Assembly (NCBI GenBank): GCA_963723975.1
Contig: CAVRTI010000024.1
Coordinates: 81,954 to 145,953, forward strand
Direction: 5' to 3'
Source of the DNA: an uncultured Actinomycetota bacterium
GTDB taxonomy: Bacteria > Actinomycetota > Actinomycetes > JACCUZ01
DNA length: 64,000 nt
The notes under the pieces: model-generated
Seen by the model: only the letters and a program-made list of their open reading frames with translations
Told to the model about the DNA's origin: nothing
The model's database searches: none
Translations under genes and position numbers: made by a program
Shown here: positions 8,972-24,799 of the stretch, one piece after another
How the letters are laid out: each line of letters begins with the position of its first letter
How positions within the stretch are numbered: position 1 is the first letter of the stretch

Positions 8972-8980
8972 GCCCATGCG

Positions 8981-9035
8981 GGCCAGAATATCTGAAATAT
9001 GTCCTTCACAAAAGAGATGTGAAGCATTACCTTCA
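8981..9035. promoter_or_regulatory. AT-rich divergent promoter/operator region containing the inverted repeat CTTCACA-N7-TGTGAAG
   Basis: The sequence is gaaatatgtCCTTCACAaaagagaTGTGAAGcattaCCTTCACAtcc. AT content is locally about 60% against a ~70% GC background. It lies between the divergent arsR-like and MFS starts. Confidence 0.4.
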
Positions 9036-9040
9036 CATCC

Positions 9041-10330
9041 ATGGAGACCAGCACCGCGGCACCGGCCGCGAGCATCCCCACCGACCCGCCACCGGCGCCC
9101 GCCACCGACCCGCGCCGGCTGTTGCGCAGCCGGGACTTCCGGCTGGTCTGGTCGGCGTACTCGATCTCGACCCTCGGCAGCGAAGTGACGGTGCTCGCGC
9201 TGCCGCTGGCCGCGGCGCTGCTGCTGGGCGCCTCGCCCTGGCAGATGGGTCTGCTGACCGCGGCCGGTACCGCGCCCTACATCGGTTTCGCCCTGCTGGT
9301 CGGTGCCTGGATCGACCGGCTGCCGCGGCGGCGCCCGCTGCTGATCGCCGCTGATCTGATCGCGGCGCTGGTGCTGGTCAGCGTGCCGGTCGCCTACCTG
9401 CTCGACGTCCTCACCGTCTCGCAGCTGGTAGTGGTCGAGCTGCTCGTCGGGGTCGTGCGGGTGACCTTCCGCCCGGCGTTCAGCGCGCACCTGCCCGATG
9501 TGGTCCCGGACCAGGCGCTCACCGAGGCCAGCTCCCGGCTGAAGGCCTCCGAGGCGACCGCGATGCTGGCCGGCCCGGGCCTGGGCGGCAGCCTGGTCCA
9601 GCTGCTGTCGGCACCGGTTGCTGTCCTCGTCGACGCTCTGGCGTTCCTGACCTCGGCGGTCCTGCTCGGTCGGGTCCGTGCGCAGGAGCGGGTCGGGCAC
9701 GTCCCGCCGCCGCGCCGTCGTCTGCGTGTCGAGATCGGCGAGGGGGTGACCCAGCTCTGGCAGGACCGCCGGTTGAGGGCCATCGCCGGCGCCGCCGCGA
9801 ACGTCAACTTCTTCGGACTGATGATCTTCGCCCTGGTCGTCGTCTACCTGACCCGGGCGCAGGACTTCACGCCGTTGATGGTGGCCGCGGTGACCGTCGC
9901 CGGAGGCGTCGGCTCGCTGATCGGAGCCCTGCTGGCGCCGCGGGTCGCCCGGCGGATCGGCCGGGGCCGCACCATCGTTCTGGGCTCGGCGGTGTTCAGC
10001 CTCGGGATGTTCGCCTTCCCGGCGGCGCACGGTCCGCGGTGGCTGGTGCTGGTCGTGCTGCTGGCCAACGAGATCGTCGTCGGCATCGCGATCATGCTGT
10101 TCGACGTCACCACCGGAGCGCTCGTTCTCAGCGAGGTGCCGCGCGACATGCTCGCCCGGGTCAACGCATCGCTGTCCACGGTGACTCAGGGCGTCAAGAC
10201 CCTCGGCGCCCTCGCGGGTGGTCTGCTCGGCACCGTGTTCGGGCTGCACGCGGCGCTGTGGGTCGGGGCGCTCGGCGCCACGACAACCGTGCTGTGGACC
10301 TGGCTCTCACCGCTGCGCTTCACGGACTGA
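9041..10330 (+). CDS. MFS transporter (EntS/DHA3-like)
   Basis: A 12-TM hydrophobic profile and an MFS motif near RRPLLIAADL (DRxxRR). Confidence 0.8.
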   Translation: METSTAAPAASIPTDPPPAPATDPRRLLRSRDFRLVWSAYSISTLGSEVTVLALPLAAALLLGASPWQMGLLTAAGTAPYIGFALLVGAWIDRLPRRRPLLIAADLIAALVLVSVPVAYLLDVLTVSQLVVVELLVGVVRVTFRPAFSAHLPDVVPDQALTEASSRLKASEATAMLAGPGLGGSLVQLLSAPVAVLVDALAFLTSAVLLGRVRAQERVGHVPPPRRRLRVEIGEGVTQLWQDRRLRAIAGAAANVNFFGLMIFALVVVYLTRAQDFTPLMVAAVTVAGGVGSLIGALLAPRVARRIGRGRTIVLGSAVFSLGMFAFPAAHGPRWLVLVVLLANEIVVGIAIMLFDVTTGALVLSEVPRDMLARVNASLSTVTQGVKTLGALAGGLLGTVFGLHAALWVGALGATTTVLWTWLSPLRFTD

Positions 10331-10368
10331 CCCGACGCCAGGCCCTGACGCCGGTAGCGTCGTGTCAC

Positions 10369-11889
10369 GTGCGGGGCGACGGGGGACAGCGGCGACGGGC
10401 CGGCCGGCTGGCCGCGACCCTGGTCGTCGTCACGGCACTAACCGGATCGGCGGTCCCCGCTGGCCCCGCCGTGGCAGCCGACCGCGAGGCTCGTGTCGAG
10501 GTCGCGCTGCGGCAGGCCCGGACCTACGCACTGCACCAGCTCGCCCGCACCGACCGCCGGCTCGGGCCCGGCCGGTTCCCGACCGTCGCGGTGCCCGGTC
10601 GGCCCTGGCGGACCAGCGGGACGGGTGGCTGGCTGGCGGGCTTCTGGCCGGGCCGGCTCTGGCTCGCCTACCAGGCCGACGGGCAGTCGCGCTGGGCCCG
10701 GCGAGCCGTCGCGACCCAGGCGCCGCTCGTCGTACGGCAGGACGACACCACTGCCCATGACCTCGGCTTCCTGCTGCAGACCAGCTTCGGCCGGGGCGCC
10801 GTCCTGGCCGGGCGCGACTCCGACGCAGCGGTCGTCCGGCGCGCTGCCGCCGCACTGGCCACCCGCTACGTCCCGTCGGTGCGAGCGATCCGCACCTGGG
10901 ACGGACCGCCGGGCCAGGTCACCGTCAACGTCGACAACCTGATGAACCTCGAGCTGCTGTTCCAGGCCGCGGACCTCGGTGGTCCGGTCGAGTGGCGTCG
11001 CCTTGCGGTGCAGCACGCCCTCACCTCGGCCCGCTGGCACCTGCGCACGGACGGCAGCACCTTCCACGTCGTCCGCTTCGACGAGCGCAGCGGTACGCCG
11101 GTCTGGCAGGGCACCGTGCAGGGCCGGTCCGACAGCTCGACCTGGGCCCGGGGGCAGGCCTGGGCCGTGCACGGCTTCACCACCGCGTTCCGCGAGTCGG
11201 GTGACCCGCGGCTGCTCGCGGCAGCGCGCCGGGCCGCCGGCTTCGCGGTGGGGCACGCTCCCCGGGACGGCGTGCCGTGGTGGGACTACGACGCGCCGGG
11301 CACCCGCCGGGACACCACGGCCGCCGCAGCCCTGGCGTCCGGGTTGCTGGAGCTGGCCAGGGTCGACCCCGATGCCGACCACCGGGCTCGTTGGCGGGCA
11401 GCGGGGATGAGCACCTTGCGGTCGCTGGTCGGGCCGCGCTACCTGGCGCGCGGCACCGGAGCGTGGTCGGTTCTGCTGCACGGCCGGCACGACCCGAGGT
11501 ACGACGACAGCGGGGTGACCTACGGCGACCACTACCTGCTCGAGGCCCTGCTCAGGGTCGAGCTGCTGCCCGCGACCCGTCCGGCGCTGAGGACGTCGAC
11601 CCTCCGTCGCGGACCGCAGGGCGCGCTGCGGGTCGACCTCGGTGTCCGGCGCACCGTCAGCGCCGTGTCCGTCCGCTGGCCGGCCGGCGCAGCGACCCGG
11701 TTCCGCATCCAGACCTCGCGCGACGGCCGGCTCTGGAGCCCGGGCCGGGGCGGAGTGAGCAGCGGGAGGGTGAGCGGCTTCGAGACCTACGACCTGCGTG
11801 ACCGCGCCGCCCGCTACGTCCGGGTCCGACCGCGCGGTGCGGCCGACGGCGGCACCGGTCGCCCGGTCGCGGTGAGGGTGCGCGGCTGA
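10369..11889 (+). CDS. Secreted glycoside hydrolase (GH88/GH105-like unsaturated glucuronyl/rhamnogalacturonyl hydrolase) with a C-terminal F5/8 type C (discoidin) domain
   Basis: A signal-peptide-like N-terminus (RRRAGRLAATLVVVTALTGSAVPAGPAVAA). GH88/105-type motifs (HDLGF, WARGQAW) are present. The C-terminal ~130 aa is jelly-roll-like (RVDLGVRRTVSAVSVRW...YVRVRPRG). The upstream part of ORF 10039.. overlaps the MFS gene and is not coding. Confidence 0.55.
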   Translation: MRGDGGQRRRAGRLAATLVVVTALTGSAVPAGPAVAADREARVEVALRQARTYALHQLARTDRRLGPGRFPTVAVPGRPWRTSGTGGWLAGFWPGRLWLAYQADGQSRWARRAVATQAPLVVRQDDTTAHDLGFLLQTSFGRGAVLAGRDSDAAVVRRAAAALATRYVPSVRAIRTWDGPPGQVTVNVDNLMNLELLFQAADLGGPVEWRRLAVQHALTSARWHLRTDGSTFHVVRFDERSGTPVWQGTVQGRSDSSTWARGQAWAVHGFTTAFRESGDPRLLAAARRAAGFAVGHAPRDGVPWWDYDAPGTRRDTTAAAALASGLLELARVDPDADHRARWRAAGMSTLRSLVGPRYLARGTGAWSVLLHGRHDPRYDDSGVTYGDHYLLEALLRVELLPATRPALRTSTLRRGPQGALRVDLGVRRTVSAVSVRWPAGAATRFRIQTSRDGRLWSPGRGGVSSGRVSGFETYDLRDRAARYVRVRPRGAADGGTGRPVAVRVRG

Positions 11890-11892
11890 CGG

Positions 11893-12318
11893 CTACCTGT
11901 CGCGGAGCCGGACCACGAACCGCAGTCCTGACCAGGTCGCGTCGATCGCGCACACCTTGTTGTCCACCAGGCCGGTGGCCAGACCGAACTCGCGTACGAC
12001 GTTCTCGTCCAGGTCGGTCGGGTAGCCGCTGGACCGCTTCGGCCAGGCGACCCAGAGCCCTCCCGCTCTGCTGAGCCGCTGCCGGGCGGGCCCGAACCGC
12101 GCCTGCAGCGCCCGGTGGTCGGGCACGAAGGTCAGCACCACGTCGTACGGCGCGCGGCCGGCGCGCCGGTGCAGCTCGACGCCCGGCAGCGGGCCCAACG
12201 TGTCCTCGACGAATCCCTCGGGGGCGCCGGTGACGAGGACACGGCTGCCCGGTCGGATGCCGAGCTTGGTCGGCAGGGGAGTCCCGGAGTAGCCGGCCGG
12301 CTGGGTCACGGTCCGCAA
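11893..12318 (-). CDS. DUF3052-family protein
   Basis: MRTVTQPAGYSGTPLPTKLGIRPGSRVLVTGAPEGF... is typical of the actinobacterial DUF3052. Confidence 0.6.
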   Translation of the reverse strand: MRTVTQPAGYSGTPLPTKLGIRPGSRVLVTGAPEGFVEDTLGPLPGVELHRRAGRAPYDVVLTFVPDHRALQARFGPARQRLSRAGGLWVAWPKRSSGYPTDLDENVVREFGLATGLVDNKVCAIDATWSGLRFVVRLRDR

Positions 12319-12359
12319 CGCTAGCCACTCGCGCGGGGGAATGACCTGCTACCGGCCGG

Positions 12360-13919
12360 GTGTTGGATGACGTCGTGGCCGACACCGCAGCGCCCTCCGC
12401 CGCGCCGGCAGGTCTCGCGTTCGGCGAGCCGCGGGCCCGGTGGGTGCTGGCGGCCACGGTGCTCGGCTCCGGTCTCGCGTTCATCGACGGCACCGTGGTC
12501 AACGTGGCGCTGCCGCAGATCGGCGAGTCGCTTGATGCCGGGGTCTCCGGCCTGCAGTGGACGATCAACGCCTACACGCTGACGCTCGCGTCGTTGATCC
12601 TGCTCGGCGGCTCGCTCGGTGACCGGTTCGGCCGGCGCCGGGTGTTCGTCGTGGGCGTCGTGTGGTTCGCCGTCGCCTCACTGGCCTGCGGCCTCGCGCC
12701 GGACGTCAGGACGCTGGTGGTGGCCCGCGCGGTGCAGGGGATCGGCGGAGCGCTGCTGACCCCGGGCAGCCTGGCGATCCTTCAGTCGTCGTTCCGGCCG
12801 GAGGACCGGATGCGGGCGATCGGCGCGTGGTCCGGGCTGGCCGGGATCGCGGGTGCGGCCGGGCCGTTCGTCGGCGGCTACCTGGTGCAGACCGTCGGCT
12901 GGCGGTGGGTCTTCCTCATCAACCTGCCGTTGGCGATCGCGGTCGTCCTGGTTGCCACCCGCCACGTCCCGGAGAGCCGCGACCCGGAGGCGTCGCACTC
13001 CCTCGACCTCGTGGGAGCCGCACTGGGCGCCGCGGGGCTGGGGTCGTTGACCTATGCGCTGATCGCCTGGCAGGAGCGGGGTCTCGCCTCGCCGGTCGTC
13101 CTGGTCACCCTGGCCGCCGGAGTCCTCGGCCTGGCCTCCTTCGTCGGGCGGGAACGCGGCGCCCGAGCACCGATGCTGCCGCTGGGCATCTTCTCCTCCC
13201 GTCAGTTCAGCGCCACCAACGCGGTGACGTTCGCGGTCTACGGCGCTCTCGGCGGGCTCTTCCTGTTCCTCGTGCTCGCGCTGCAGGTGGTGGCGGGCTT
13301 CTCGCCCCTCGCCGCCGGGACCTCGCTGCTGCCGGTGACCCTGCTGCTGCTCCTGCTGTCGTCCCGGATGGGCGCGCTCGCCACCCGGATCGGACCGCGG
13401 CTGCCGATGACGGTCGGTCCGCTGCTCGCGGCTGCGGGGGCGACGTTGCTGGCGTGGCGGGTCGATGCCAGCACCTCCTACTGGGTGGACGTGCTGCCGG
13501 GGGTGTCGCTGTTCGGGTGGGGCTTGTCGTTCACCGTGGCGCCGCTGACCGCGACCGTGCTCGCCGCCGCGCCGGACCGGCACGCCGGCATCGCCAGCGG
13601 GGTCAACAACGCGGTGGCCCGCGTCGCCGGGCTGCTCGCGGTGGCTGCGCTGCCGCTGCTCGTCGGGCTGGACGGGGCGGCCTACGCCGACCCGGACCTG
13701 CTGCGACCGGCGTACCGGTCGGCGATGTTGATCTGCGCCGGCCTGCTCGCCACCGGCGGCGGGCTCGCCGCGCTGCTCGTACGGTCGCCGACGGCCGGCT
13801 CGGACGCCGCCGCCGGTCCCGAGGAGGAGGCGGCGGCGCACCGCTACTGCTGCCCGGTCGACGGACCGGCGCTGCACGCGTGCCCGCACGACGGCCCGGT
13901 GGTCAGTCGTCCGCGCTGA
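12360..13919 (+). CDS. MFS drug:H+ antiporter, DHA2 (EmrB/QacA) family, 14 TMS
   Basis: LAFIDGTVVNVALPQI...LQWTINAYTLTLASLILLGGSLGDRFGRRRVF... is a DHA2 signature. Confidence 0.85.
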   Translation: MLDDVVADTAAPSAAPAGLAFGEPRARWVLAATVLGSGLAFIDGTVVNVALPQIGESLDAGVSGLQWTINAYTLTLASLILLGGSLGDRFGRRRVFVVGVVWFAVASLACGLAPDVRTLVVARAVQGIGGALLTPGSLAILQSSFRPEDRMRAIGAWSGLAGIAGAAGPFVGGYLVQTVGWRWVFLINLPLAIAVVLVATRHVPESRDPEASHSLDLVGAALGAAGLGSLTYALIAWQERGLASPVVLVTLAAGVLGLASFVGRERGARAPMLPLGIFSSRQFSATNAVTFAVYGALGGLFLFLVLALQVVAGFSPLAAGTSLLPVTLLLLLLSSRMGALATRIGPRLPMTVGPLLAAAGATLLAWRVDASTSYWVDVLPGVSLFGWGLSFTVAPLTATVLAAAPDRHAGIASGVNNAVARVAGLLAVAALPLLVGLDGAAYADPDLLRPAYRSAMLICAGLLATGGGLAALLVRSPTAGSDAAAGPEEEAAAHRYCCPVDGPALHACPHDGPVVSRPR

Positions 13920-13955
13920 CCGCACCGACCCGCGGACCGGCCGACGGGCCGCGGC

Positions 13956-14972
13956 TCAGTCGTCCTCGGCCACCCACAGCCGGAGCCGGTCGAGCGCCTC
14001 GCGCTCGATCTGGCGTACCCGCTCCCGGGAGACGCCGAGACGTCCGGAGATCTGCTCGTAGGTCTGCTTCGGACCGGGCACCAGGCCGTAGCGGCACCGG
14101 ATGACCTCCGCCTCCCGCTCGGTGAGCCGGTCGACCAGCCCGACCAGGGCGTCCCGCGAGTCGTGCTCGACGACGATGTCCTCGGGGCTGGGGTCGGCAG
14201 CGTCGACCAGGTCGCCCAGGGTGGTGCCGCCGTCATCGCCCACCAGGGCGTCCAGGCTGGCCGGTGTCCGGGAGATCCGGTCCAGGTCCTGCACGACGTC
14301 GACGTCCAGCCCCATCTCGGTCGCGACCTCGGCGTCGGTGGCGTCCCGGCCGAGGGAGGCGGACAGGTCGCGGCGGGTGCGGCCGAGCCGGCTGAGCTTC
14401 TCGACCTGGTGGACGGGCAGCCGGACGGTGCGGCTCTGCTCGGCGATGGCCCGGCCGATCGACTGCCGGATCCACCAGGTGGCGTACGTCGAGAACTTGT
14501 AGCCGCGGGAGTAGTCGAACTTCTCCACGGCCCGGACCAGGCCGACGTTGCCCTCCTGGATCAGGTCGAGCAGCGGCATCGACGCCCGGGTGTAGCGGCG
14601 CGCCAGCGACACGACCAGGCGCAGGTTCGCCCGGATGAAGGCGCGCTTGGCCAGGTCGCCGTCGGTGGCGAGCCGGTCCAGCTCCAGGGTCGTCGCGATC
14701 TTGCGGGCCTCGCGCAGCTTGACCGCGCGCCGGTGGCCGAGCGCGTCGAGCAGGTGGCGGGCATAGAGGCCGGCCTCGATCCGCTGCGCGAGGTCGACCT
14801 CGGTCGCCGCGTCGAGCAGCGGTGCCTTGCCGATCTCGTCGAGGTAGAGCCGGACCAGGTCAGGGGTCCCCACCTCCTGGTCGAACGCGTCGACGGGGCC
14901 GGCGCCGTGGGCGTCGGCCGGGTCGGGGGCCTCGGTCAGGGGAGCGGTCCGCGCCAGGGGCTGCTGGGTCAT
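13956..14972 (-). CDS. RNA polymerase sigma-70 family factor (group 2, SigB-like)
   Basis: Region 1.2 (LVRLYLDEIGKAPLL), region 2 (DLIQEGNVGLVRAVEKFDYSRGYKFSTYATWWIRQ) and regions 3-4 (QISGRLGVSRERVRQIE). The longer ORF 13956..16046 is an artefactual extension. Confidence 0.85.
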   Translation of the reverse strand: MTQQPLARTAPLTEAPDPADAHGAGPVDAFDQEVGTPDLVRLYLDEIGKAPLLDAATEVDLAQRIEAGLYARHLLDALGHRRAVKLREARKIATTLELDRLATDGDLAKRAFIRANLRLVVSLARRYTRASMPLLDLIQEGNVGLVRAVEKFDYSRGYKFSTYATWWIRQSIGRAIAEQSRTVRLPVHQVEKLSRLGRTRRDLSASLGRDATDAEVATEMGLDVDVVQDLDRISRTPASLDALVGDDGGTTLGDLVDAADPSPEDIVVEHDSRDALVGLVDRLTEREAEVIRCRYGLVPGPKQTYEQISGRLGVSRERVRQIEREALDRLRLWVAEDD

Positions 14973-15084
14973 CGATCCCTTTCGTCGCGCCGGAGTAGGG
15001 AGGCCCGGCACACGGATCAAACGATCGAGGCGCCCGCAGGATTCCGGCAGGTGCGAGCGGCCCGGCTGGGGGTAGGGCAGCGCC

Positions 15085-16130
15085 ATGTCGGCTCCCACCA
15101 CGACCTCCCGGGCCGCCGCGCTGCGGGCGCTGCGGCCGGACCTGCACGACCCGGTCACCCGGACAGCCGCCTGGGCCCGCGCAGCCCTCGACGCGGGCCT
15201 GCTCGACCTGCCGCTGCCCGGCCGGGGCAGGACGACCGAGCGGTTCACCGGGCTGGCCGACCTGGGCACGCGTCGACCTGGATCTCGCCCGCCTCGCCGA
15301 GGCCCATGCCGACGCCGTCGCGATCCTCGCCGACCTCGGCGTGACCGGACCCGGCGACGGGCTGTGGGGGGTCTGGGCGGCGAACCCGCCGACCGACCCG
15401 CTGCTTGGCACGGCGGGACGGCGACCACTGGCTGCTCGACGGCACCAAGCCCTGGTGCAGCGGCGCCGGGTGCTGCGACCACGCCCTGGTCACGGCCCGC
15501 ACCGACGACGGCTACCGGCTCTTCGCCGTCGACCTCGCCGCGCCCGGCGCGACGCCGGTGGACGGCAGCTGGCCGGCCGCGGCGATGCAGGGCAGCGACA
15601 GCCGCTCGGTGCGGTTCGAGGACGTGCCGGCCGTGCCGGCCGGCGGCCCGGAGGAGTACCTGCAGCGACCGGGCTTCTGGCACGGCGCGGTAGGAGTGGC
15701 CGCGGTGTGGTGGGGCGGGGCCCGCGGTGTCGCCCGCGCCCTGGCCAGGGCCGACGCCCGGCGGCCGCTGAACCCGCACGCCCTCGCACACGCCGGCGCG
15801 GTCGACGCCGGGCTGTCGGCCGCGTGGGCCGCCCTCGCCTCGGCCGCGGCCTGCTTCGACGACGACCCGGCCGACACCGCGGGCACCGCCCGGCTCGCGG
15901 CGGCCCGGGTCCGGGCAGCCGTCGAGAGCGCCGCGACCGAGGTCGTCGGGCGCACCGGCCGGGCGCTCGGCGCGGCGCCGCTGGCCCTCGACGCCGACCA
16001 CGGCCGCCGGGTGGCCGACCTGGGGCTGTACCTCAGGCAGAGCCACGCAGAGCGTGACCTCGAGGAGCTCGGCCGGCAGAGCCTGGACGCCGGCGCCTTC
16101 CCGTGGGCCGACCCGGACGGCGCACGATGA
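15085..16130 (+). CDS. Acyl-CoA dehydrogenase-family protein, split by two apparent 1-nt insertions (near 15268 and 15412)
   Basis: Three consecutive frames read MSAPTTTSRAAALRALRP...FTGLADLG | VDLDLARLAEAHADAVAILADLGVTGPGDGLWGVWAANPPTDPLL | ARRDGDHWLLDGTKPWCSGAG...C-terminal helical domain. Its stop overlaps the next gene (ATGA). Confidence 0.6.
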
Positions 16131-16861
16131 CGGTCATCGAGCCGATGGCCGGCACCGACGAGAACCGGTGGGCGGACTGGCCCGCGCCGCAGGCCTGGCC
16201 GACGCTGGACGTGGAGCAGGTCGCCGGTCGGCCGGTGCTCGTCGTGGCGGCCCACCCGGACGACGAGGTGCTCGGCGTCGGCGGGCTGCTCGCCGTGCTG
16301 GCCGGGCTCGGCGCCGAGCTGCGGCTGCTCTGGGCCACGGACGGCGAGGCCTCGCACCCGGGGTCGACCGCCGAGCCGGCCGCCAGGCTCGCGGCGATCC
16401 GGCGATCGGAGTCGTCGGTCGCGGCGGAGCGGCTCGGCCTGGCGGCCGCGCCGCGCACCCATCTCGGACTGCCCGACGGTCGGCTGACCGGGCGGGCGGA
16501 CGAGCTGGCCGACCTGCTCGGAGAGCAGGTCCGGGACGGTGAGGTCGTGCTCGCGCCGTGGTCCGGTGACGGTCACCCGGACCACGAGGCCTGCGGGCGG
16601 GCGGCCCGCCAGGTCGCGCCGACGGTGCTCGAGTACCCGGTCTGGGCCTGGCACTGGGCCGAGCCGGACGACGATCGGGTGCCGTGGTCGCGGGCCCGCC
16701 GGGTCGACCTCGATGCCGACGCGCGGGAGCGCAAGGCCGCGGCGGTCGGATGCTTCCGCTCCCAGGTCGAGCCGATCGGCCCGGGCCTGCTGGACGGCCC
16801 GGTGCTGCCGGACCGGGTGCTCGCCCACTTCCGCCGCCACCACGAGGTGGTGCTGGCATGA
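16127..16861 (+). CDS. PIG-L family deacetylase (LmbE-like)
   Basis: VLVVAAHPDDEVLGVGG...SGDGHPDHEA. ATGA start/stop overlaps occur on both sides. Confidence 0.8.
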   Translation: MTVIEPMAGTDENRWADWPAPQAWPTLDVEQVAGRPVLVVAAHPDDEVLGVGGLLAVLAGLGAELRLLWATDGEASHPGSTAEPAARLAAIRRSESSVAAERLGLAAAPRTHLGLPDGRLTGRADELADLLGEQVRDGEVVLAPWSGDGHPDHEACGRAARQVAPTVLEYPVWAWHWAEPDDDRVPWSRARRVDLDADARERKAAAVGCFRSQVEPIGPGLLDGPVLPDRVLAHFRRHHEVVLA

Positions 16862-17463
16862 GCGTCCCCGCCGACTACTTCAGCCGGATGTACGCCGGGT
16901 CCGAGGACCCCTGGGGATTCCGCAGCCGGTGGTACGAGCAGCGCAAGCGCGACGTCACCCTGGCGGCACTGTCCCGGCCCCGGTACCGCCGGGCGTTCGA
17001 ACCCGGATGCTCGATCGGCGTGCTCACCGCAGCGCTGGCCGCACGGTGCGACGAGGTGGTGGCCACCGACGTGGACGACCGCGCGCTGGCGTCCGCGCGG
17101 ACCGCCCTCGCCGGGCAGCTCAACGTGCGGTTCGAGCGGATCGCCGTTCCGGAGCAGTGGCCGGACGGGATGTTCGACCTGGTGGTCGTCTCCGAGCTCG
17201 GCTACTACCTCGATGCCGACGCGCTGGACCTGATGCTCGACCGGGTGGTCGACTCGCTGGCGCCGCGCGGGACGTTGCTGGCCTGCCACTGGCGGCACCC
17301 GGTCGCCGACTACCCGGCGACCGGCGACGACGTGCACGAGCGGCTGCTCGCCCGGCCCGAGCTGACCAGCGCCGTGCGGCACGAGGAGGAGGACTTCCGG
17401 CTGGACCTGCTCACGCTCGGCCCGGTCGCGTCACCCGCCCGGCGCGAGGGGCTGGTGCCATGA
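16858..17463 (+). CDS. Class I SAM-dependent methyltransferase
   Basis: The Rossmann motif region is FEPGCSIGVLTAALAARCDEVVATDVD...DLVVVSELGYYL. An ATGA overlap couples it to the upstream gene. Confidence 0.75.
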   Translation: MSVPADYFSRMYAGSEDPWGFRSRWYEQRKRDVTLAALSRPRYRRAFEPGCSIGVLTAALAARCDEVVATDVDDRALASARTALAGQLNVRFERIAVPEQWPDGMFDLVVVSELGYYLDADALDLMLDRVVDSLAPRGTLLACHWRHPVADYPATGDDVHERLLARPELTSAVRHEEEDFRLDLLTLGPVASPARREGLVP

Positions 17464-18146
17464 CGTCCGCGGTGCAGGTCGTCGGGGTGGTCGTCCCGGC
17501 CCGCGACGAGCAGGAGCTGCTGCCCGGGGCCCTCGCCGCCCTCGGCGTCGCGGCGTCGCGGGCGGCCCGGCTCGGGACGACAGTCGACCTGCTCGTGGTC
17601 GCCGACTCGTGCACCGACGGCACCGCCGAGGTGGCCCGGACCGCGGGGGTGCCGGTTCTCGAGGTCGACGCCGGTGCGGTCGGCCTCGCTCGCGCGGCGG
17701 GGCTGCGGCACCTGCTGGACCGGCGAAGCGCCGTACCCAGGAGCCGCCTCTGGCTGGCCACGACCGATGCCGACTCCCGGGTCCCGCCGCACTGGCTGAG
17801 CCGTCAGATCGAGCTCGCCGCGACCGGCGCCGACCTGGTGGTGGGCACCGTCGAGGTCGACGACTGGTCCGGGCACCCGCCGTACGTCGAGGCGCGGTGG
17901 CGGGCCGGCTACGACCAGCGGGAAGGGCACGGTCACGTGCACGGTGCCAACGTCGGCGCCCGCGCCGACGCCTACCTGGAGGTCGGGGGATTCCCGTCTC
18001 TGGACCGCGACGAGGACGTTGCGCTGGTCGCCGCCCTCGCCCACCGCCGGGTGGTGCGCACCGGAGCGATCCCGGTCCTCACCAGCGCCCGGATGCTGTC
18101 CCGGGCCGGAGGAGGGTTCGCCGACCACCTGGCCGGTCTCGCGTGA
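17460..18146 (+). CDS. Glycosyltransferase family 2 (small, soluble)
   Basis: VVPARDEQELL...LLVVADSCTDGTAEVAR...ATTDADSRV (DxD-like). The ATG overlaps the upstream TGA. Confidence 0.75.
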   Translation: MTSAVQVVGVVVPARDEQELLPGALAALGVAASRAARLGTTVDLLVVADSCTDGTAEVARTAGVPVLEVDAGAVGLARAAGLRHLLDRRSAVPRSRLWLATTDADSRVPPHWLSRQIELAATGADLVVGTVEVDDWSGHPPYVEARWRAGYDQREGHGHVHGANVGARADAYLEVGGFPSLDRDEDVALVAALAHRRVVRTGAIPVLTSARMLSRAGGGFADHLAGLA

Positions 18147-18149
18147 GGG

Positions 18150-19447
18150 CTAGAACGGCGCGGCAGCCACGGGACCGGGTCGACCAGGGCCGAGTTCACG
18201 TAGACCTCGAAGTGCATGTGGCAGCCGGTCGAGTAGCCGGTCGAGCCGACCGTGCCGATCACCTGCCCGGCCGTGACCTGGTCGCCGACGGCAACCCCGA
18301 GAGCGGTCTGGTGGTTGTACGTGGTGGTCAGCAGGACCCCGTCGACGGCGCCGTGCGTGACCACGGCCCGCCAGCCGTAAGCGCCGTTCCAGCCGGCCTG
18401 GACGACCAGCCCCTCGCGGGCCACCCGGATCGGGGTCCCGCACGCCGCACCGATGTCGGCCCCGGTGTGCAGCTTGTAGACGCCGGTCACCGGGTGCACG
18501 CGCATGCCGAACGGCGAGGTGATGGCACCGCGCACCGGCCAGGCCAGGGTTCCGGGGCGGGCCGGGACGGTCGCCCCGTCGCGGCCCGCGGCCGGGCCGA
18601 GGTCGCGGCGGGCCATGGCCGCCAGCTCGGCCTGCAGCTGGGTGGACTCGCCGATCCGTTGGGCGTGGGCTGCGTCGTCCTGGGCCTGTGCGGCGGCAGC
18701 GGCGGCCAGCGCCGCCTTGCGCCGCTCGACCAGACCGGCGACCTGGGCCTCCGCCGCGCGAGCCTGCTCGGCGAGCACCGCGACGGTCCGCAGGTCCTTC
18801 TGGGCCTGCTCGTCGGCTGCAGCGAGCTCGTCGCGGACCTGCTCGAGGTCGTCGGTGCGCTCACCGAAGGACTGCTGGACCGTCTCCAGGTCGTCAAGCA
18901 CCGAACGCTGCGAGGACACCACCGTCTGCAGGGCGACCAGCCGCTCGGCGAAGTCGGCCGGGGACCGGGCGTCCAACAGCATCGAGACGTTGCCCAGCGA
19001 GCCGCCGCCCTGGTAGACCGCCCGCGCCAGGCGACCGATCTTGGCCTGCTGCTCGGTGACCTCGGCTGCGGTCTGCTCGGCCTCCCGGGTGCTGAGCATG
19101 TACCGGACCTGGGCCCGCCCGCGGCGCAACGCGGTCCCGGCCTGACGGCGCTGGGCCGCGGCGAGCAGCCTGCGGGTCTGCTCTGCGGTGGCACGCGCGC
19201 CGGGCAGCGCCCGGTCCGCGAGCCGGAGGTCGGCGGCGGCCCGGACCATCTGCTCGGAGGACTCGGCGAGCTCGGAGCGGACCTGCCTGAGCACCGCCGC
19301 CAGCGTGTCCGGGTCGACCCCGGCGTCGTGGTCCGTGGTGGCGGTGGGAGTCGGCGCCGGCTTGTCGGCCGCGCTGGCGCCCGCCGGACCGACTGCGAGC
19401 AGCGCCACGGCGCAAGCCAGCACGGCACGGCCGAGCAGGCGTCGCAT
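18150..19447 (-). CDS. Secreted M23-family metallopeptidase with an N-terminal coiled-coil region. The 3' end is uncertain
   Basis: A signal peptide (MRRLLGRAVLACAVALLAVGPAGASA) and long coiled-coil heptads. The M23 catalytic region is HTGADIGAACGTPIRVAREGLV...GSTGYSTGCHMHFEVYVNSALVDPVPWL. The open frame runs on to 17972 in antisense to the GT2 gene, and an alternative frame stops at 18150. Confidence 0.75.
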
Positions 19448-19561
19448 GAGCGTCCTTCGCGGTTCGGGTCCGGCCCGCCGTCCGGGCCTCCCTCACGTCG
19501 TCGGCGTCCGGCGACCCCGGCTTGACCGCTCGGCCGGTGTTGCGTGCACCCCGCCGGCCGG

Positions 19562-20356
19562 TCAGACGGGGGAGAGCGCACCCCGGGTCGCCTCGTCGAG
19601 CAGCCGGTCGAGGATCGAGAGGACTACCGAGGTGTCGAAGCAGGCCTGCACCCGGTCGGTTGCCGCCATCCCCATGGCCTCGAAGCGCATCGGGTCGGCC
19701 TGCAGGGCGCGGGCCGTCACCGCCAGGTCGGTCGGGGATGCGACGACGATGCCGCTGACGCCGTCGGACACCAGGTCGGCGAGAACGCCGCGGTCCAGCA
19801 CGACGGCGGGACGGCCCGCGGCCATGCCCTCGAGCACCGCGGCGACCTCTGCGGGGGTGTCGTCGGCGACGACCACGACGCCGGTACGGTCCCGGTCGCC
19901 CTCCACCCGGCGCGCGGCGGCGGCGGCGTCAACGGTCTCGGGCAGCACCCGCACCCGGCTCCGGGGAGCGCCCATCGCGGCCAGCGCCTCGGCCTCCGAC
20001 GGAGTTGCCGCCAGCAGCGTCACGTCGCTGCGGACCAGGGCGCGCTCGACCCGGGTTGTCGCCGGGTCACCGGACCGGCCGGGCCGCGGCAGCCGCAGCA
20101 GCACCGGGACCGACCGCTCACGGGTAGCGACCTGGACAGCGAGCCCGGCCACCCAGCCGAGCGCGACCACGACGTCCGCGGCGCCGCCGTCCCACGAGTC
20201 GGCCAGGCCGTAGCCGAGGTCGGCGGCCCGGCTGGGCTCGAGATCAGGGCGGTGGACGACGCGCACGTCGTGACCGTTGGCGCGCAACCCGTCGGTCAAC
20301 AGATCGGCGGGACCTGCAGGAGCTGAGGGCAGCGTGGAGACAAGGGCGACGTGCAT
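19562..20356 (-). CDS. Glycosyltransferase-like protein (GT-B/GT4-like, short)
   Basis: MHVALVSTLPSAPAG...VVHRPDLE... with a Rossmann-like alternation of beta and alpha elements. The annotation is weak. Confidence 0.5.
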   Translation of the reverse strand: MHVALVSTLPSAPAGPADLLTDGLRANGHDVRVVHRPDLEPSRAADLGYGLADSWDGGAADVVVALGWVAGLAVQVATRERSVPVLLRLPRPGRSGDPATTRVERALVRSDVTLLAATPSEAEALAAMGAPRSRVRVLPETVDAAAAARRVEGDRDRTGVVVVADDTPAEVAAVLEGMAAGRPAVVLDRGVLADLVSDGVSGIVVASPTDLAVTARALQADPMRFEAMGMAATDRVQACFDTSVVLSILDRLLDEATRGALSPV

Positions 20357-20487
20357 GGGAGCGGCTCGTTCCAGGGGTGGCGCGCGCGGGCGCTCAGGTG
20401 GTGCGGCGCGTCGGGCTGCTCCAGCGCGCGGACAGGTCTCGTCCGACTCCTCCCACCGAGCCGCGCGGGAGAAACCTCCCACGAGCA

Positions 20488-21111
20488 TCAGGTCGGGGCT
20501 TGCCGACGCTGCAGCTCGGCGATCAGGTCCCGGCGGCTCATCGCCGACCTGCCCTCGATGCCCGCCCGCCGGGCCAGCTCGTACAGCTCGGCCCGGGAGA
20601 CGTCGAACCGCCGCGGTGGTGGCTCGGCGTCGCCGTGCTCTCGCAGGTCTGCGTCCCGGCGGGTCTCGTAGACGCCGCCGAGCCGCCGTACCTCCTTGCG
20701 GGCGACCGCGGACTCCAGCGGCGCCAGCACCTGGCCGGACAGGAGGGCGGCGTGCGCCTCGATCAGTCGGCGCAGCCGCTCTCCGATGGCGCCGACCCCG
20801 GGCGACGGCACAGGTGTCCCGGCCAGCTCGCCGGCCGCCCGTGCCATGTCGCAGTCCAGCCTTGACAGCTCCTCGGCGGCGTTCACGGCGGCGGGCCCGG
20901 CCTGCGCTATCACGTCCGGCGTCAGGGCCTCCAGCTCGGCGACCTGGTGGGCCGCGAGCAGGAGGACCAGCTCGTCACGCCACCGCCGCTGACTAGGTCC
21001 TTCGGCGACTGTGCGGCGCAGCAGCCGGAGCAGGCGTTCGTGGTCGAGCGTCGTGAGTCGGGTGATGCTGCTGGGCATGTCGGAGGGGTTACCCAGGGAC
21101 ACTGCGGTCAT
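20488..21111 (-). CDS. Hypothetical protein with a C-terminal Rho_N-like (SAP-like) helix-hairpin
   Basis: The C-terminus SRAELYELARRAGIEGRSAMSRRDLIAELQRRQ resembles the Rho termination factor N-terminal domain fold. The N-terminal region is helical. The start is uncertain (21111 or 21078). Confidence 0.45.
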   Translation of the reverse strand: MTAVSLGNPSDMPSSITRLTTLDHERLLRLLRRTVAEGPSQRRWRDELVLLLAAHQVAELEALTPDVIAQAGPAAVNAAEELSRLDCDMARAAGELAGTPVPSPGVGAIGERLRRLIEAHAALLSGQVLAPLESAVARKEVRRLGGVYETRRDADLREHGDAEPPPRRFDVSRAELYELARRAGIEGRSAMSRRDLIAELQRRQAPT

Positions 21112-21176
21112 TCCCCGCGTGGTCGTCGTGTCCCCGGGCCAGTCTCCCGATGTCCCGATGCCAACCGGGTGGCGTA

Positions 21177-21626
21177 CTACTGGACCTCGCCGCGCCACGC
21201 GCCGGTCTCGCGGCCGCTGTCCTCGATGAAGTCCTTGAACCTCTCGAGGTCGCCCTTGACCCGGTGCTTGACGACGCCGAGCTTGTCGCCCGCCGTCTCG
21301 ATCAACCCGTCCGGCTCGAAGTCCATCTGCACCATGACCTTGGTTTTGTCAGGTGAGAGCCGGTGGAAGGTCACCACGCCGGACTGCCGTGGCTCGTCCA
21401 CCGACGTCCACGCGACCCGCTCGTCGGGGTGCTGCTCGGTGATCTTGGCATCGAACTCCCGCTCGACGCCGCCGACCTTGGTGACCCAGTGGGTCATCGT
21501 GTCGCTGGTCTGCTGGACCCGCTCGACTCCTTCCATGAACTGCGGGAACGACTCGAACTGGGTCCACTGGTTGTAGGCGGTGGTGACCGGGACGGCCACC
21601 TCGATCGACTCTTCGACTGTGCTCAT
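21177..21626 (-). CDS. SRPBCC-family protein (polyketide cyclase/dehydrase-like)
   Basis: MSTVEESIEVAVPVTTAYNQWTQFESFPQFMEGVERVQQ... is a Bet v1-like fold signature. Confidence 0.75.
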   Translation of the reverse strand: MSTVEESIEVAVPVTTAYNQWTQFESFPQFMEGVERVQQTSDTMTHWVTKVGGVEREFDAKITEQHPDERVAWTSVDEPRQSGVVTFHRLSPDKTKVMVQMDFEPDGLIETAGDKLGVVKHRVKGDLERFKDFIEDSGRETGAWRGEVQ

Positions 21627-21664
21627 GGCAGCCCCGCTGCCCGGGGGTTCGGCAGCAAAACCTG

Positions 21665-22042
21665 TCAGCGACCGCCGCTGCAGGTGTGGACGGTCTCCGG
21701 GTGGCTGAGACAGCGGAACGCCTCGTCGAGGGTGGCCACCAGTCCCAGCCGGCGGTCGAGCTGGGTGATCTGCAGGATGCGCCGCACCGAGGGAGAGTCG
21801 GAGACGACGTGCAGCGAGCCGTCGAGCCGTTCGGCCCGCTGGCGGGCGCGGACCAGCGCGTTGATTCCGCTGGAGTCCATGAAGGTGACGTCAAGGGCGT
21901 CGATCACCAGGTGGGCGCCATCGCGGTTCAGGGCGGAGAGCAGCTCGTCGCGCAAGGCGGACACGGACCCGAGGTCGACCTCGGCGGGGAGCCGGACGAC
22001 AGCGACCCCCTCGTGCGGTGTCGCTGGTCGGACAGTGGTCAT
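21665..22042 (-). CDS. STAS-domain anti-sigma factor antagonist
   Basis: VVRLPAEVDLGSVSALRDEL...LVIDALDVTFMDSSGINALV (with a phosphorylatable Ser). Confidence 0.8.
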   Translation of the reverse strand: MTTVRPATPHEGVAVVRLPAEVDLGSVSALRDELLSALNRDGAHLVIDALDVTFMDSSGINALVRARQRAERLDGSLHVVSDSPSVRRILQITQLDRRLGLVATLDEAFRCLSHPETVHTCSGGR

Positions 22043-22140
22043 CGGCGCTCCCGCGGATCGGTGGCAGGGCTACACCGGCTTCCTCAGTGCGGCGTTGATG
22101 GTAGATCGCCGCCGACAGCGGGGCAAGAGCCTGCCGGTGG

Positions 22141-23845
22141 TCAGCCCGGGGCGGGGGCCTCGGCGGGAAGGTGGCGGCGGGACTGCACGATGCGGAACCG
22201 GGTGGCCACGTAGGCCGCGTCGGTGAGGGCGGAGTTCGCCGCCGGGTTGGCGCCGGTGGCGTGGAAGTCGCTGAACGCGGCTGACTGGTTGACGTAGACG
22301 GTCTCGGTCAGGTTGCAGGACAGCGCGACACCGGCGTCCAGGGCCGCCTCCTCCACCGCGTCCAGCACCTCGTCCTGCGTCGAGTACACCGCGGCCGTGA
22401 TCGCACCCTGCTCCCGCACCGAGTCGCGGAAGAGCTCGATCGACTCGGTGGTGCTGCCGGTGGTGACCAGGAACGCGATGGGTCCGAAGCACTCCTGCAG
22501 GTAGGTGTCGCGGTCGCCGGCGTCGACCTTGACGACAGTGGGGGTGCGGACCACGGCGTCGGGGAAGTCGGGGTGGGTCACCGACCGCGACGGCAGCACG
22601 ACCTCGCCGTACGACGGTGCCTTGTCGAGCCGCTCGAGAACGCCGTCGTTCACGACTGCACCGAGCAGTGCGGTCGCGCGCAGGTCGTCGCCGAGCAGAC
22701 CGTCGACGGCGGCGGCCAGGTCGCGGCCCAGCTCCTCGACGCTCTTCCGCACGCCGTCGGCGGTGATGCCGTCGCGGGGCACCAGCAGGTTCTGCGGAGT
22801 GGTGCACATCTGGCCGCTGTACAGCGACAACGAGAAGGCGAGGTTCGCGAGCATGCCGCGGTAGTCGTCGGTGGAGTCCACCACGACGGTGTTGACACCG
22901 GCCTTCTCGGTGAAGACGGCCGCCTGGTGGGCGTTGCGCTCCAGCCAGGTGCCGAAGCCGGTCGAGCCGGTGTAGTCGATGACCTTCACCTCCGGCCGTA
23001 GGGCCAGCACCTTGGCGAGGCCCTCGTCCGGGTGGTCGGCTGCGAGCTGCACAAGGTCCGGGGAGTAGCCGGCCTCGGCGAGGACCTCGCGGGCGATCGC
23101 CACGGTGATCGCCAGCGGCAGCACGGCCCGGGGGTGCGGCTTGACCACGACGGCATTGCCGGTGACCAGGCTGGCGAACAGCCCGGGGTAGGAGTTCCAG
23201 GTCGGGAAGGTGTTGCAGCCGACCACCAGCGCCACACCGCGCGGCACGACGGTGAAGGTCTTGGACATCCGCTGTGGTGGCCGCTTGCCCTGCGGCTTCT
23301 CCCAGGTCGCCTGCACCGCGTGCCGCGTCATCTCGGAGTAGGCGTAGGCGACCGCCTCCAGCGCGCGGTCCTGCGCGTGCGGCCCGCCGGCCTGGAACGC
23401 CATCGCGTACGCCTGGCCGGACGTGTGCATCACCGACTGCGCCATCTCGTGGCTGCGGGCGTTGATGCGAAGCAGGATCTCGAGGGACAGGTCGGCCCTC
23501 ACGTCGGGGCCGGCCGCCCGCCAGGACGGCATGGCCGCCGTCGCGGCAGCGAGCAGCGCGTCGACGTCGGCGTGCGGGTAGCTGATGCCGAGCTCGATGC
23601 CGTACGGCGAGCGCTCGCCGCCGACCTCCCCGTCGGTTCCCGGCTGCTCGAGCGGGAAGGCCCTGCCGAGGTAGCCGTCGAAGGCGGCCTTCCCCTCGGC
23701 GGCGGACTGGCTGCCGCTCTCCTCGCCGTACGCCTTGAGGTGCTCCGGGTAGGCCGACCAGTAGGTGCGCTCCCGGATCGCGGTGAGTGCACGCTGCAAG
23801 GTCTCGCTGTGCCGGCCGGTGGTCGTGCTGGGGTTCGCCGTCATG
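22141..23845 (-). CDS. paaN: Aldehyde dehydrogenase family protein, PaaN-like (phenylacetic acid degradation ring-opening ALDH)
   Basis: MTANPSTTTGRHSETLQRALTAIRERTYWSAYPEHLKAYGEE..., the NTFPTWNSYPG motif region and the catalytic Cys region SGQMCTTPQNLLVP. The open frame upstream of 23845 (to 25197) is an artefact. Confidence 0.7.
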
Positions 23846-23862
23846 CTCCGTAACCTAACGTC

Positions 23863-24774
23863 GTGGCCGACGAGACCGAACTTCTGCTGCTGGACGGCGG
23901 GCTCGCCACCGAGCTGGAGCGCCGGGGGCACGACCTGTCCGACGACCTGTGGTCGGCCCGGCTGCTCCTCGACCGGCCGGACGAGATCGTGGCCACTCAC
24001 CTGTCGTACTTCCGCGCGGGTGCCCAGGTGGCGACGACGGCGAGCTACCAGGCGAGCTTCGCCGGTTTCGCCTCCCGTGGCTGCAGCCGCGAGGAGGCGG
24101 CCGGACTCATCCGCCGCAGCGTGTCGCTGGCCCGGCAGGCGGCCGGGCTGGCTGCAGACGAGGCCGCCGACGGCGCGCGGCGACTCGTCGCGGCCTCGCT
24201 TGGTCCTTACGGTGCGGTGCTGGCCGACGGCTCGGAGTACTCCGGCGACTACGGCATGACCGACGCCGCCCTTCGCGACTTCCACCTCCCGAGGGCCGTG
24301 GTTCTCTCGACCGCAGGGGCCGACCTGCTGGCGATCGAGACGGTGCCCTCGGAACAGGAGGCGGCCGTCCTGCTCGGGGTCCTCGACGAGCTGCCCGAGG
24401 GCACCCGTGCCTGGCTGAGCCTGACCTGCGCCGACGGCTCGACGACCCGACGCGGCGAGGACGTCGACCGGGTCTTCGGCCTCGCCCGTGACCACGACCG
24501 GGTGGTCGCCGTGGGCGTCAACTGCACGGCGCCGGATCACGTCGAGGAGCTGGTGGGCCGTGCGGTCGCCGCCAGCGGCAAGCCAGCGGTCGTCTACCCG
24601 AACAGCGGGGAGAGCTGGAACGGCGCTGCGCGCACCTGGGGCGGGGACGGCGTCGGGGTCGACGCCGCGGCCGCCCAGCGCTGGGTGGCGCTGGGAGCCC
24701 GGTACGTGGGCGGGTGCTGCCGGGTCGGCGCGACCGACATCGCCCGTCTGGCCCGGTCGCTGCGCCCGAGCTGA
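23863..24774 (+). CDS. mmuM: Homocysteine S-methyltransferase
   Basis: LLLDGGLATELERRGHDLSDDLWSARLL...VNCTAP...GGCCRVG (a Zn-binding Cys triad typical of Pfam S-methyl_trans). Confidence 0.8.
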   Translation: MADETELLLLDGGLATELERRGHDLSDDLWSARLLLDRPDEIVATHLSYFRAGAQVATTASYQASFAGFASRGCSREEAAGLIRRSVSLARQAAGLAADEAADGARRLVAASLGPYGAVLADGSEYSGDYGMTDAALRDFHLPRAVVLSTAGADLLAIETVPSEQEAAVLLGVLDELPEGTRAWLSLTCADGSTTRRGEDVDRVFGLARDHDRVVAVGVNCTAPDHVEELVGRAVAASGKPAVVYPNSGESWNGAARTWGGDGVGVDAAAAQRWVALGARYVGGCCRVGATDIARLARSLRPS

Positions 24775-24799
24775 CGCCCGCTGACCGCCGGCGCGTGGC

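Follow-up and report, generated by a model that had tools for sequence, protein, structure and literature searches.

A conserved, translationally coupled four-enzyme cassette in an uncultured actinobacterium, possibly for building and tailoring a small amino-sugar glycoside

What product could require a glycosyltransferase, a deacetylase, a methyltransferase and a flavoprotein of the acyl-CoA dehydrogenase (ACAD) fold to be encoded in one tightly packed operon? The question is raised by four genes at positions 15085 to 18146 of a 64,000-nt stretch of DNA (hereafter the window, G+C content ~75%) from an uncultured Actinomycetota bacterium (assembly GCA_963723975.1, contig CAVRTI010000024.1, forward-strand positions 81,954 to 145,953). 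A first-pass annotation of the sequence had proposed a coupled operon of unknown pathway making a small glycoconjugate by glycosyl transfer, deacetylation and methylation, with a mycothiol-like product as an example. The general idea is still the best reading, whereas the mycothiol-like example fails. The cassette is a real, tightly coupled operon and a horizontally spread four-enzyme module, and the chances are about even (probability ~0.5) that it is self-contained and cytoplasmic and builds and tailors a small amino-sugar glycoside. Its features are as follows.

15085 to 16130, plus strand: gene of the ACAD-fold flavoprotein, 347 aa once repaired, lying in three frames in the window
15270, plus strand: extra G in comparison with four relatives, causing the first +1 frameshift
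15405, plus strand: extra T in comparison with four relatives, causing the second +1 frameshift
16127 to 16861, plus strand: metal-dependent N-deacetylase of the PIG-L/LmbE family, 244 aa, its start overlapping the stop of the flavoprotein gene (ATGA)
16858 to 17463, plus strand: NodS-like class I methyltransferase dependent on S-adenosylmethionine (SAM), 201 aa, with an ATGA overlap with the PIG-L gene
17460 to 18146, plus strand: small soluble glycosyltransferase of family 2 (GT2; GT-A fold), 228 aa, with an ATGA overlap with the methyltransferase gene

The first step is to establish whether the four genes belong together. A PIG-L alignment was scanned against one genome per GTDB species, giving at least 600 matching stretches and at least 539 confirmed relatives, and the best 80 of the latter, searched with the four proteins by tblastn, form the locus set for the counts out of 80 given here. 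All four genes are found in 71 of the 80 loci, and in only three is the PIG-L gene a lone paralogue. The order ACAD-PIGL-NodS-GT2 prevails (56 loci), followed by GT2-ACAD-PIGL-NodS (12 loci: 10 of the Rhodococcus group, Variovorax and one metagenome-assembled genome, MAG). The hosts belong to three phyla, comprising Actinomycetota (including Micromonospora, Streptomyces, Cryptosporangium, Rhodococcus, Modestobacter and Acidimicrobiaceae), Beta- and Gammaproteobacteria (including Variovorax, Herbaspirillum, Caballeronia, Bordetella ansorpii, Janthinobacterium, Pseudomonas oryzihabitans, Acinetobacter and Psychrobacter) and Myxococcota (Cystobacter fuscus). The cassette thus passes very strongly the co-conservation test that the first-pass annotation had set across Actinobacteria, and that annotation's actinobacterial framing was too narrow, given the relatives in Burkholderiales, Pseudomonas, Acinetobacter, Psychrobacter and Cystobacter. 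All-against-all clustering of the flanking open reading frames (ORFs) of the 80 loci revealed no fifth conserved gene; a zinc-dependent alcohol dehydrogenase, an SBF-like transporter, otsAB, Ku/LigD and RsbVW-like genes each adjoin the cassette in a few loci only.

The junctions are conserved along with the gene set. Inspection of the ORFs of the window places the ATGA start/stop overlaps exactly at 16127, 16858 and 17460, as had been claimed, and a 4-nt overlap is the commonest junction at every boundary (38 of 79, 58 of 81 and 39 of 60; 9 of 12 for GT2>ACAD). With about 70 of the 80 independent loci showing this gene set and these 4-nt junctions, the arrangement is beyond what chance would give. 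A profile search of the ACAD-like family against 1.84 billion representatives (clusters at 50% identity, E ≤ 1e-30) returned 646 clusters, two of whose members, P0382 (851 aa) and P0426 (876 aa), are single polypeptides with the architecture ACAD-PIG-L-NodS. P0382 comes from an Illumina/SPAdes contig, runs in frame through plausible linkers and has a GT2 gene directly upstream; it is a genuine natural fusion. A further candidate, the GT2-ACAD "fusion" P0388, was rejected as a frameshift artefact whose linker is out-of-frame sequence. Co-conservation, junctions and the natural fusion together indicate that the four genes are one functional unit moving as a block, coupled in translation and passed on jointly by both inheritance and transfer. 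The idea of typical plasmid cargo was also discarded, with only six plasmid records found, mostly of megaplasmids or chromids.

The next step is to ask what each enzyme may do, beginning with the three whose catalytic or cofactor motifs are, as judged from their sequences, all retained. The deacetylase is a clear member of the PIG-L superfamily (PF02585, 97.3 bits vs. a cutoff of 28.2, E = 1.3e-27), and its zinc/catalytic motifs AHPDDE and HPDHE (H43-P-D45-D46-E and H150-P-D-H153-E) are invariant in 23 homologues. Its nearest solved relatives, diacetylchitobiose deacetylase, TT1542, BshB1 and MshB, are all de-N-acetylases of the N-acetylglucosamine (GlcNAc) type. However, none of the NCBIfam equivalogs reaches its cutoff (in brackets): MshB scores 22.3 (224), Mca 16.6 (277), BshB1 61.4 (182.5) and BshB2 32.8 (195) bits.

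The methyltransferase passes the Pfam NodS model (PF05401, 41.9 bits vs. a cutoff of 24, E = 1.3e-10) and also matches class I methyltransferase models, whereas the NodS equivalog NF041650 gives 58.4 bits vs. a cutoff of 300; by these scores the enzyme is classed as NodS-like, not as NodS. Among solved structures it matches 4isc_A best (E = 2.9e-43), then NodS 3ofj (5e-10), and the next matches are amine N-methyltransferases, i.e., phosphoethanolamine N-methyltransferases and the gentamicin N-3'' methyltransferase. PDB entry 4ISC, deposited simply as "Methyltransferase", looks like an orthologue of the cassette enzyme, and we take it to be a structural-genomics entry from Pseudomonas syringae. 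With the PADLOC models for anti-phage defence, the methyltransferase gave a match to mad2 that reflects only its generic domain and the remaining proteins of the cassette gave none, and a defence role was set aside.

The glycosyltransferase meets the GT2 family model (PF00535, 40.7 bits vs. a cutoff of 23.3, E = 3.1e-10), in keeping with a GT-A enzyme. In its DxD motif D103 is near-invariant and A104-D105 are invariant, as are E185-D186, and the family carries an unusual invariant motif, H-x-H-V-H-G-A-N. Its AlphaFold2 model (predicted local distance difference test, pLDDT, of 89) matches GT-A enzymes of many acceptor types with template-modelling (TM) scores of ~0.6, including WrtF, AvpGT, ArnC, GtrB and GpgS. 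Neither inspection of the 228-aa sequence nor the secondary structure of the model revealed a membrane segment.

The first gene was described as ACAD-like, which holds for the fold and for one domain, but its identity as a true acyl-CoA dehydrogenase is doubtful. Once repaired, the protein matches Acyl-CoA_dh_M (43 bits vs. a cutoff of 33, E = 4.6e-11), and no Acyl-CoA_dh_N, _1 or _2 domain was found by Pfam; aligned by hhalign with a canonical ACAD encoded in the window, the middle domain alone aligns. The best NCBIfam match is SfnB, at 23 bits vs. a cutoff of 431. The AlphaFold2 model used for this protein is that of an orthologue, P0121 (96% identical, pLDDT 91.7), and it shows the overall ACAD fold, with Foldseek TM scores of 0.64–0.78 to ACADs and ACAD-fold oxygenases. 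In this search DszC, TdsC, MsuC, KijD3, ORF36 and HsaA are interleaved with true ACADs at E values of 1e-12 to 1e-10; the monooxygenase matches have E values of 2e-12 to 4e-11, TM scores of 0.68–0.78 and identities of 16–22%. The family has a loop with the consensus L-Y-L-R-Q-S-H-A-E-R-D, in which R317, Q318 and H320 are invariant and no Glu follows the Tyr. ACADs carry their catalytic glutamate in a Y-E-G-T loop or at the helix-G position, and by our own motif alignment we take the loop of the family to be the equivalent of Y-E-G-T. On this basis the catalytic glutamate appears to be missing from the protein, which is unlikely to be a classical acyl-CoA dehydrogenase; of the two activities, an N-oxygenation like that of DszC or KijD3 is favoured somewhat over acyl-CoA dehydrogenation.

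Put in sequence, these assignments would give a short pathway. The GT2 would transfer an N-acetylhexosamine (HexNAc), most likely GlcNAc from UDP-GlcNAc, onto a soluble acceptor; the PIG-L enzyme would remove the N-acetyl group and expose a free amine; and the NodS-like enzyme would N-methylate that amine, following the same logic as NodB and NodS in Nod-factor synthesis. The ACAD-fold flavoprotein may then carry out a redox step on the sugar or the amine, either an N-oxygenation of the KijD3 type or another dehydrogenation.

Several points weigh against this pathway. What is known of the enzyme families allows no more than a guess at the acceptor and the sugar donor, and the fold matches of the GT2 do not separate small-molecule from polyprenyl-phosphate acceptors. 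The methyltransferase is far under the NodS equivalog cutoff, and N- rather than O- or C-methylation is unproven. As for the flavoprotein, the loss of the catalytic Glu rests on our motif alignment and not on tool output, the middle domain matches glutaryl-CoA and short-chain acyl-CoA dehydrogenases as well as monooxygenases, and the 80 loci show no conserved flavin reductase partner beside the cassette. Two of five close assemblies have a broken ACAD-like gene, for which real inactivation could be the cause as well, and a clean loss of the GT2 gene in a relative that is 88% identical (L082) shows that the module can decay in this lineage. Finally, the stress-related neighbours described below occur in a minority of loci, most contexts being unrelated.

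The state of the first gene must be settled in any case, as the predicted operon stood in its gene set, its junctions and the lack of a characterised pathway, but not in the continuity of this ORF. In the window the gene starts in frame 1 at 15085, passes to frame 2 after ~15269 and to frame 3 after ~15404, and ends with the stop at 16130. The reference for indel calls was L001, a metagenome contig that is 98.2% identical over window positions 8466 to 24861 with the same gene order, and in which the gene is intact and encodes 347 aa. Against L001 and another three relatives, extra bases are seen at three sites of the window, namely G at 15270, T at 15405 and GG at 18162-18163, the last of which lies 2–3 codons before the end of the convergent M23 peptidase gene and abolishes its stop. 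Removal of the two inserted bases in the first gene restores a stop-free 347-aa ORF. The ratio of nonsynonymous to synonymous substitution rates (dN/dS) of this repaired ORF vs. relatives is 0.18–0.28, and that of the three intact cassette genes 0.13–0.31; the repaired ORF is under purifying selection. Over the ~18-kb stretch shared with another relative, L083 (81% PIG-L identity), only the ACAD-like gene among 20 aligns in more than one frame, and M23 is additionally without a stop, owing to the GG insertion.

Similar breaks are seen elsewhere in the window. The gene kgd/sucA (2-oxoglutarate dehydrogenase, ~3279-7043, minus strand) lies in three frames, with shifts near ~4150 and ~3510: the first frame holds the N-terminal, 2-oxoacid_dh and E1_dh parts, the second Transket_pyr and the first half of OxoGdeHyase_C, and the third the rest of OxoGdeHyase_C, whereas its orthologue in L082 is a single ORF of 1265 aa. 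The rho gene (34441-36457, plus strand) is apparently frameshifted as well, with Rho_N in the 34441-35433 frame and the RNA-binding and ATPase domains in the 34730-36457 frame. A second, larger GT2 gene (Glyco_tranf_2_3 / Glyco_trans_2_3, 37995-39819, plus strand) occupies two frames with a break near 38580, and a weak Exosortase_EpsH-like match follows in its second frame.

The close relatives L001, L082, L083 and L084 are "contig_N" assemblies of the ENA series ERZ250395xx, in which different genes are split by single-base indels: MFS and SRPBCC genes are broken in L001, and MFS, Aldedh and Rho_N genes in L084, which also has two ACAD-like insertions of its own at the window-equivalent positions 15339 and 15416. 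Because such indels fragment different genes in each assembly, gene calls from this data set should be treated as indel-prone. L082 (ERZ25039516 contig_870) differs in kind, a 645-bp deletion (window-equivalent 17504-18148) having removed nearly the whole GT2 gene and left the other three genes intact.

A true pseudogene was the circumstance named in advance as fatal to the operon, and it is possible to read the data in that sense, i.e., that the operon is decaying here, with two real frameshifts in the ACAD-like gene and an inactive pathway. The two +1 insertions are non-compensating and lie within 135 nt of each other, L084 has its two in the same part of the gene, and the deletion in L082 is a real loss. 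However, the frameshifts are probably assembly errors, because kgd, rho, the other GT2 gene and M23 in the same window are also frameshifted, two of them being core genes; the sister assemblies break other genes at other sites, the dN/dS of the repaired ORF is like that of the three intact genes, and those three downstream genes are unbroken. Decay is therefore an unlikely explanation, an assembly indel error being much likelier, by several to one, for the first gene. Most likely, the operon is intact in the organism and the frameshifts of its first gene are errors of the assembly consensus; those in the ACAD-like gene, kgd and rho, most likely artefacts, should not be taken as pseudogenes. 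Programmed frameshifting was considered and rejected, as the two +1 shifts do not compensate each other, are absent in relatives and are accompanied by similar damage in other genes of the window.

If the module is active and makes a glycoside, the identity of the acceptor becomes the question. One proposal is that trehalose-6-phosphate or trehalose is converted to an amino-disaccharide or -trisaccharide (trehalosamine-like or GlcN-trehalose) serving as a protectant or an antibiotic. The cassette adjoins trehalose genes in two different arrangements in two classes:

Comamonas antarctica megaplasmid (L086, NZ_CP054841, 4514-9510): otsA-cassette-otsB, with otsA overlapping the first and otsB the last cassette gene, followed by a ferritin-like gene
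Psychrobacter immobilis (L071, 637-6433): otsB-otsA-cassette, the cassette directly after otsA

In addition, co-occurrence with OtsB in STRING was reported for A. baumannii (PMC9948694). These arrangements in Comamonas and Psychrobacter offer a lead to trehalose-6-phosphate as the acceptor. However, otsA/otsB are adjacent in only 2 of ~85 loci, and in the window the surroundings of the cassette are free of trehalose genes; moreover, GT2 enzymes invert configuration, so that the product would be without a trehalose-type alpha,alpha linkage. A trehalose-linked product is accordingly held to be improbable.

Another proposal places the pathway at the cell envelope. In this route a GT2 like ArnC, PpgS or LgmA would load HexNAc on polyprenyl phosphate, the PIG-L enzyme would deacetylate it as ArnD, NaxD and LgmC do, and the sugar would be flipped and attached to an envelope polymer. 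ArnC proteins are the only solved sequence relatives of the GT2 (E ~1e-3), ArnC, GtrB and DPMS are among its fold matches, and there is a weak NCBIfam match to PpgS. The route could also accommodate the A. baumannii operon ACICU_02432-02435, which is down 31–62 fold in colistin-dependent mutants deficient in lipooligosaccharide (LOS) (PMC5660220). However, the scores are 24.5 bits vs. a cutoff of 529 for the ArnC equivalog and 15.8 vs. 370 for PpgS, which do not support either assignment, and the 228-aa enzyme has no membrane or amphipathic C-terminal extension by inspection or in its model. Furthermore, no flippase or GT-C transferase is conserved beside the cassette in the 80 loci, and the cassette occurs in monoderms and diderms with very different envelopes. 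The lipid-carrier route is thus distinctly unlikely, and a soluble acceptor is preferred.

A pathway to a low-molecular-weight thiol like mycothiol or bacillithiol, to which the distant relationship of the PIG-L enzyme with MshB and BshB might point and which had been the example offered at first, is highly improbable and effectively refuted, because MshB, Mca and BshB1 score far under their cutoffs, the glycosyltransferase is a GT2 and not the GT4 of MshA/BshA, no GT4/MshA, cysteine ligase (MshC/BshC) or acetyltransferase (MshD) is conserved nearby in the 80 loci, and those pathways have no role for a methyltransferase or a flavoprotein.

The preferred reading, a self-contained module for an amino-sugar glycoside, leaves the question of when the cassette is expressed. 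The features flanking the operon in the window are as follows.

15039 to 15075, plus strand: putative promoter region of the operon, with a conserved GGATTCCGG element at 15039-15047 and a GGGTAG -10-like element at 15070-15075
13956 to 14972, minus strand: divergent group-2 (SigB/HrdX-like) sigma-70 factor, with regions 1.2, 2, 3 and 4 found
18150 to 19447, minus strand: convergent, secreted M23 peptidase with a PcsB-like coiled coil, context only and not a cassette member

The GGGTAG element ends 9 nt upstream of the ATG, and GGGTA or GGGGTA is found 11–18 nt before the ATG in eight aligned relatives of the clade that carries the sigma gene. In the same clade a second conserved element, GGAnGATTyCCGG, is found ~25 nt further upstream of GGGGTA. 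Within the intergenic region shared with the divergent sigma gene (15019-15075), AACGATCG, GGATTCCGG and GGGGTA are conserved. The second of these three elements forms, in one relative, L002, a near-palindrome, TCCGGAA-GA-TTTCCGGA, and may be an operator. The GGGTA element would fit a -10 of the SigB/SigF type and a leaderless or near-leaderless mRNA. An Rfam scan of 13800-19600 and scans for sigma-70 promoters and terminators gave no match. The sigma factor itself scores 358 bits vs. a cutoff of 464 for PRK07921 (SigB), and it adjoins the cassette only in the closest clade (L001-L004, L008 and L082-L084). In all of that clade except the short contig L004 the convergent M23 peptidase is present too; its signal-peptide-like N-terminus and its location bear out the original description of a secreted peptidase immediately downstream, but as a neighbour in the closest clade only it stands outside the unit. 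As read, its ORF spans 17972-19447 and overlaps the GT2 gene antisense by 175 nt, which is spurious; the gene truly ends at 18150, with 3 nt between it and the stop of GT2, and the two convergent genes are 3–15 nt apart in relatives.

Further along the window, at 20488-22042 on the minus strand, lies a group of small stress-type genes, whose products are a protein with a Rho_N domain (20488-21198), one of SRPBCC/polyketide-cyclase-like type (21177-21626) and an anti-sigma antagonist of the STAS kind (21665-22042). At this site a DUF6328 gene is present in L082, L083 and L084 and missing from the window and L001.

Beyond the closest clade, neighbours of a related kind recur in several genomes:

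Pseudomonas oryzihabitans and a related MAG (L036, 3350-9978; L030): Ku-LigD-cassette on one strand, Ku-LigD directly upstream
Cryptosporangium (L038, 6276-7010; L012, 6206-6940): a STAS+HATPase_c_2 (RsbV-RsbW-like) fusion directly upstream and DUF1360 downstream
Streptomyces rimosus pSRIMHP: an SRPBCC protein upstream
L087: a Transgly_assoc stress protein upstream

LigD-like genes also lie within ~5 kb of the cassette in several Rhodococcus loci. A Zn-dependent alcohol dehydrogenase adjoins the cassette in four distant genomes (L061, 5778-6941; L042, 5253-6617; L011, 4895-6076; L035, 3396-4574); it is 43–45% identical between Acinetobacter and Actinomycetota and may be an occasional accessory gene. 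The stress theme of the neighbouring genes is suggestive but not established. Under the glycoside reading, expression would probably be tied to stationary-phase, desiccation or general stress regulons, and in the lineage of the window the control may be exerted through the divergent SigB-like sigma factor and the GGGTA-type promoter.

The cassette also reaches into clinically relevant bacteria. An Acinetobacter sp. MAG (L061) carries it at 36–40% identity, and the orthology of the A. baumannii operon was judged by annotation and by this MAG, not by A. baumannii sequences. By position, the operon of A. baumannii ATCC 17978 would presumably correspond to A1S_2226-2229, between blsA (A1S_2225) and A1S_2230. 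In A. baumannii ACICU, the genes for a glycosyltransferase, a SAM methyltransferase, an LmbE protein and a protein related to acyl-CoA dehydrogenase (ACICU_02432-02435) were reported to form one operon (PMC5660220). The counterpart genes in this species adjoin the blue-light sensor gene blsA (PMC6240043, PMC9948694). In line with the original label of an unknown pathway, full-text searches turned up no functional study assigning a role to the cassette, the only mentions being of ACICU_02432-35, either for their joint regulation as one operon or for their place next to blsA; a search with P. putida locus tags returned accession-number collisions only.

Taken to its furthest, the glycoside reading would point to an undescribed and widespread stress metabolite, a glucosamine glycoside that is N-methylated, may also be N-oxygenated and perhaps has trehalose-6-phosphate or a polyol as its base, made in stationary phase or during desiccation by soil Actinomycetota, Burkholderiales, Pseudomonas and A. 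baumannii. The ACAD-fold protein would then represent a new clade of flavoenzymes that oxidise amino sugars, and would do so in a complex that includes both the deacetylase and the methyltransferase. This full version is a tentative conjecture, and we consider it doubtful as a whole.

The compact, strongly conserved module is found across phyla, with matches in at least 539 species-level genomes, and no product has been assigned to it. The priority pathogen A. baumannii carries it, and in LOS-deficient mutants of this species it belongs to the operons with the strongest co-regulation; one of its components, the methyltransferase, apparently already has a crystal structure (4ISC). It is thus an orphan operon with medical and ecological reach that can be tested in tractable hosts. 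If the glycoside reading is true, the product would be an N-methyl amino-sugar conjugate, conceivably a new compound for protection, signalling or decoration of the envelope with a link to dormancy or to survival of desiccation.

How, then, does the cassette compare with known systems? One of the closest parallels is the tailoring of Nod factor in rhizobia (NodC, then NodB, then NodS), in which a GT2 makes a GlcNAc glycoside, a deacetylase frees the amine and a SAM-dependent enzyme of the NodS family methylates it. The cassette methyltransferase passes the Pfam NodS model, and NodS 3ofj is its closest characterised solved relative. However, the cassette is not a Nod system: its deacetylase has the PIG-L/LmbE fold whereas NodB has the carbohydrate esterase family 4 (CE4) fold, its GT2 is a soluble 228-aa protein whereas NodC is a processive membrane synthase of chitin oligomers, and it has no conserved NodA acyltransferase in the 80 loci and an added ACAD-fold flavoprotein. 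With mycothiol (MshA/B/C/D) and bacillithiol (BshA/B/C) synthesis the cassette shares a glycosyltransferase for a GlcNAc glycoside and a PIG-L/LmbE zinc deacetylase exposing the amine. Those pathways use a GT4 enzyme and then a cysteine ligase (plus, for mycothiol, an acetyltransferase), in contrast to the GT2, methyltransferase and flavoprotein of the cassette.

For the flavoprotein, the nearest likeness is to the ACAD-fold flavin monooxygenases (DszC/TdsC, MsuC/SfnB, KijD3 and the ORF36 nitrososynthase), which are its best Foldseek matches, and two of which, KijD3 and ORF36, act on the amines of amino sugars, an activity that would suit a step after deacetylation. It differs from them in being ~40–60 residues shorter and in having no detectable Acyl-CoA_dh_2 or Acyl-CoA_dh_1 domain. 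A further likeness is that to ACICU_02432-02435 of A. baumannii, whose four annotated products match those of the cassette and which form one co-regulated operon (PMC5660220, PMC6240043). Nothing in the cassette contradicts current understanding; it is a variation on the theme of glycosylating, deacetylating and then decorating the amine.

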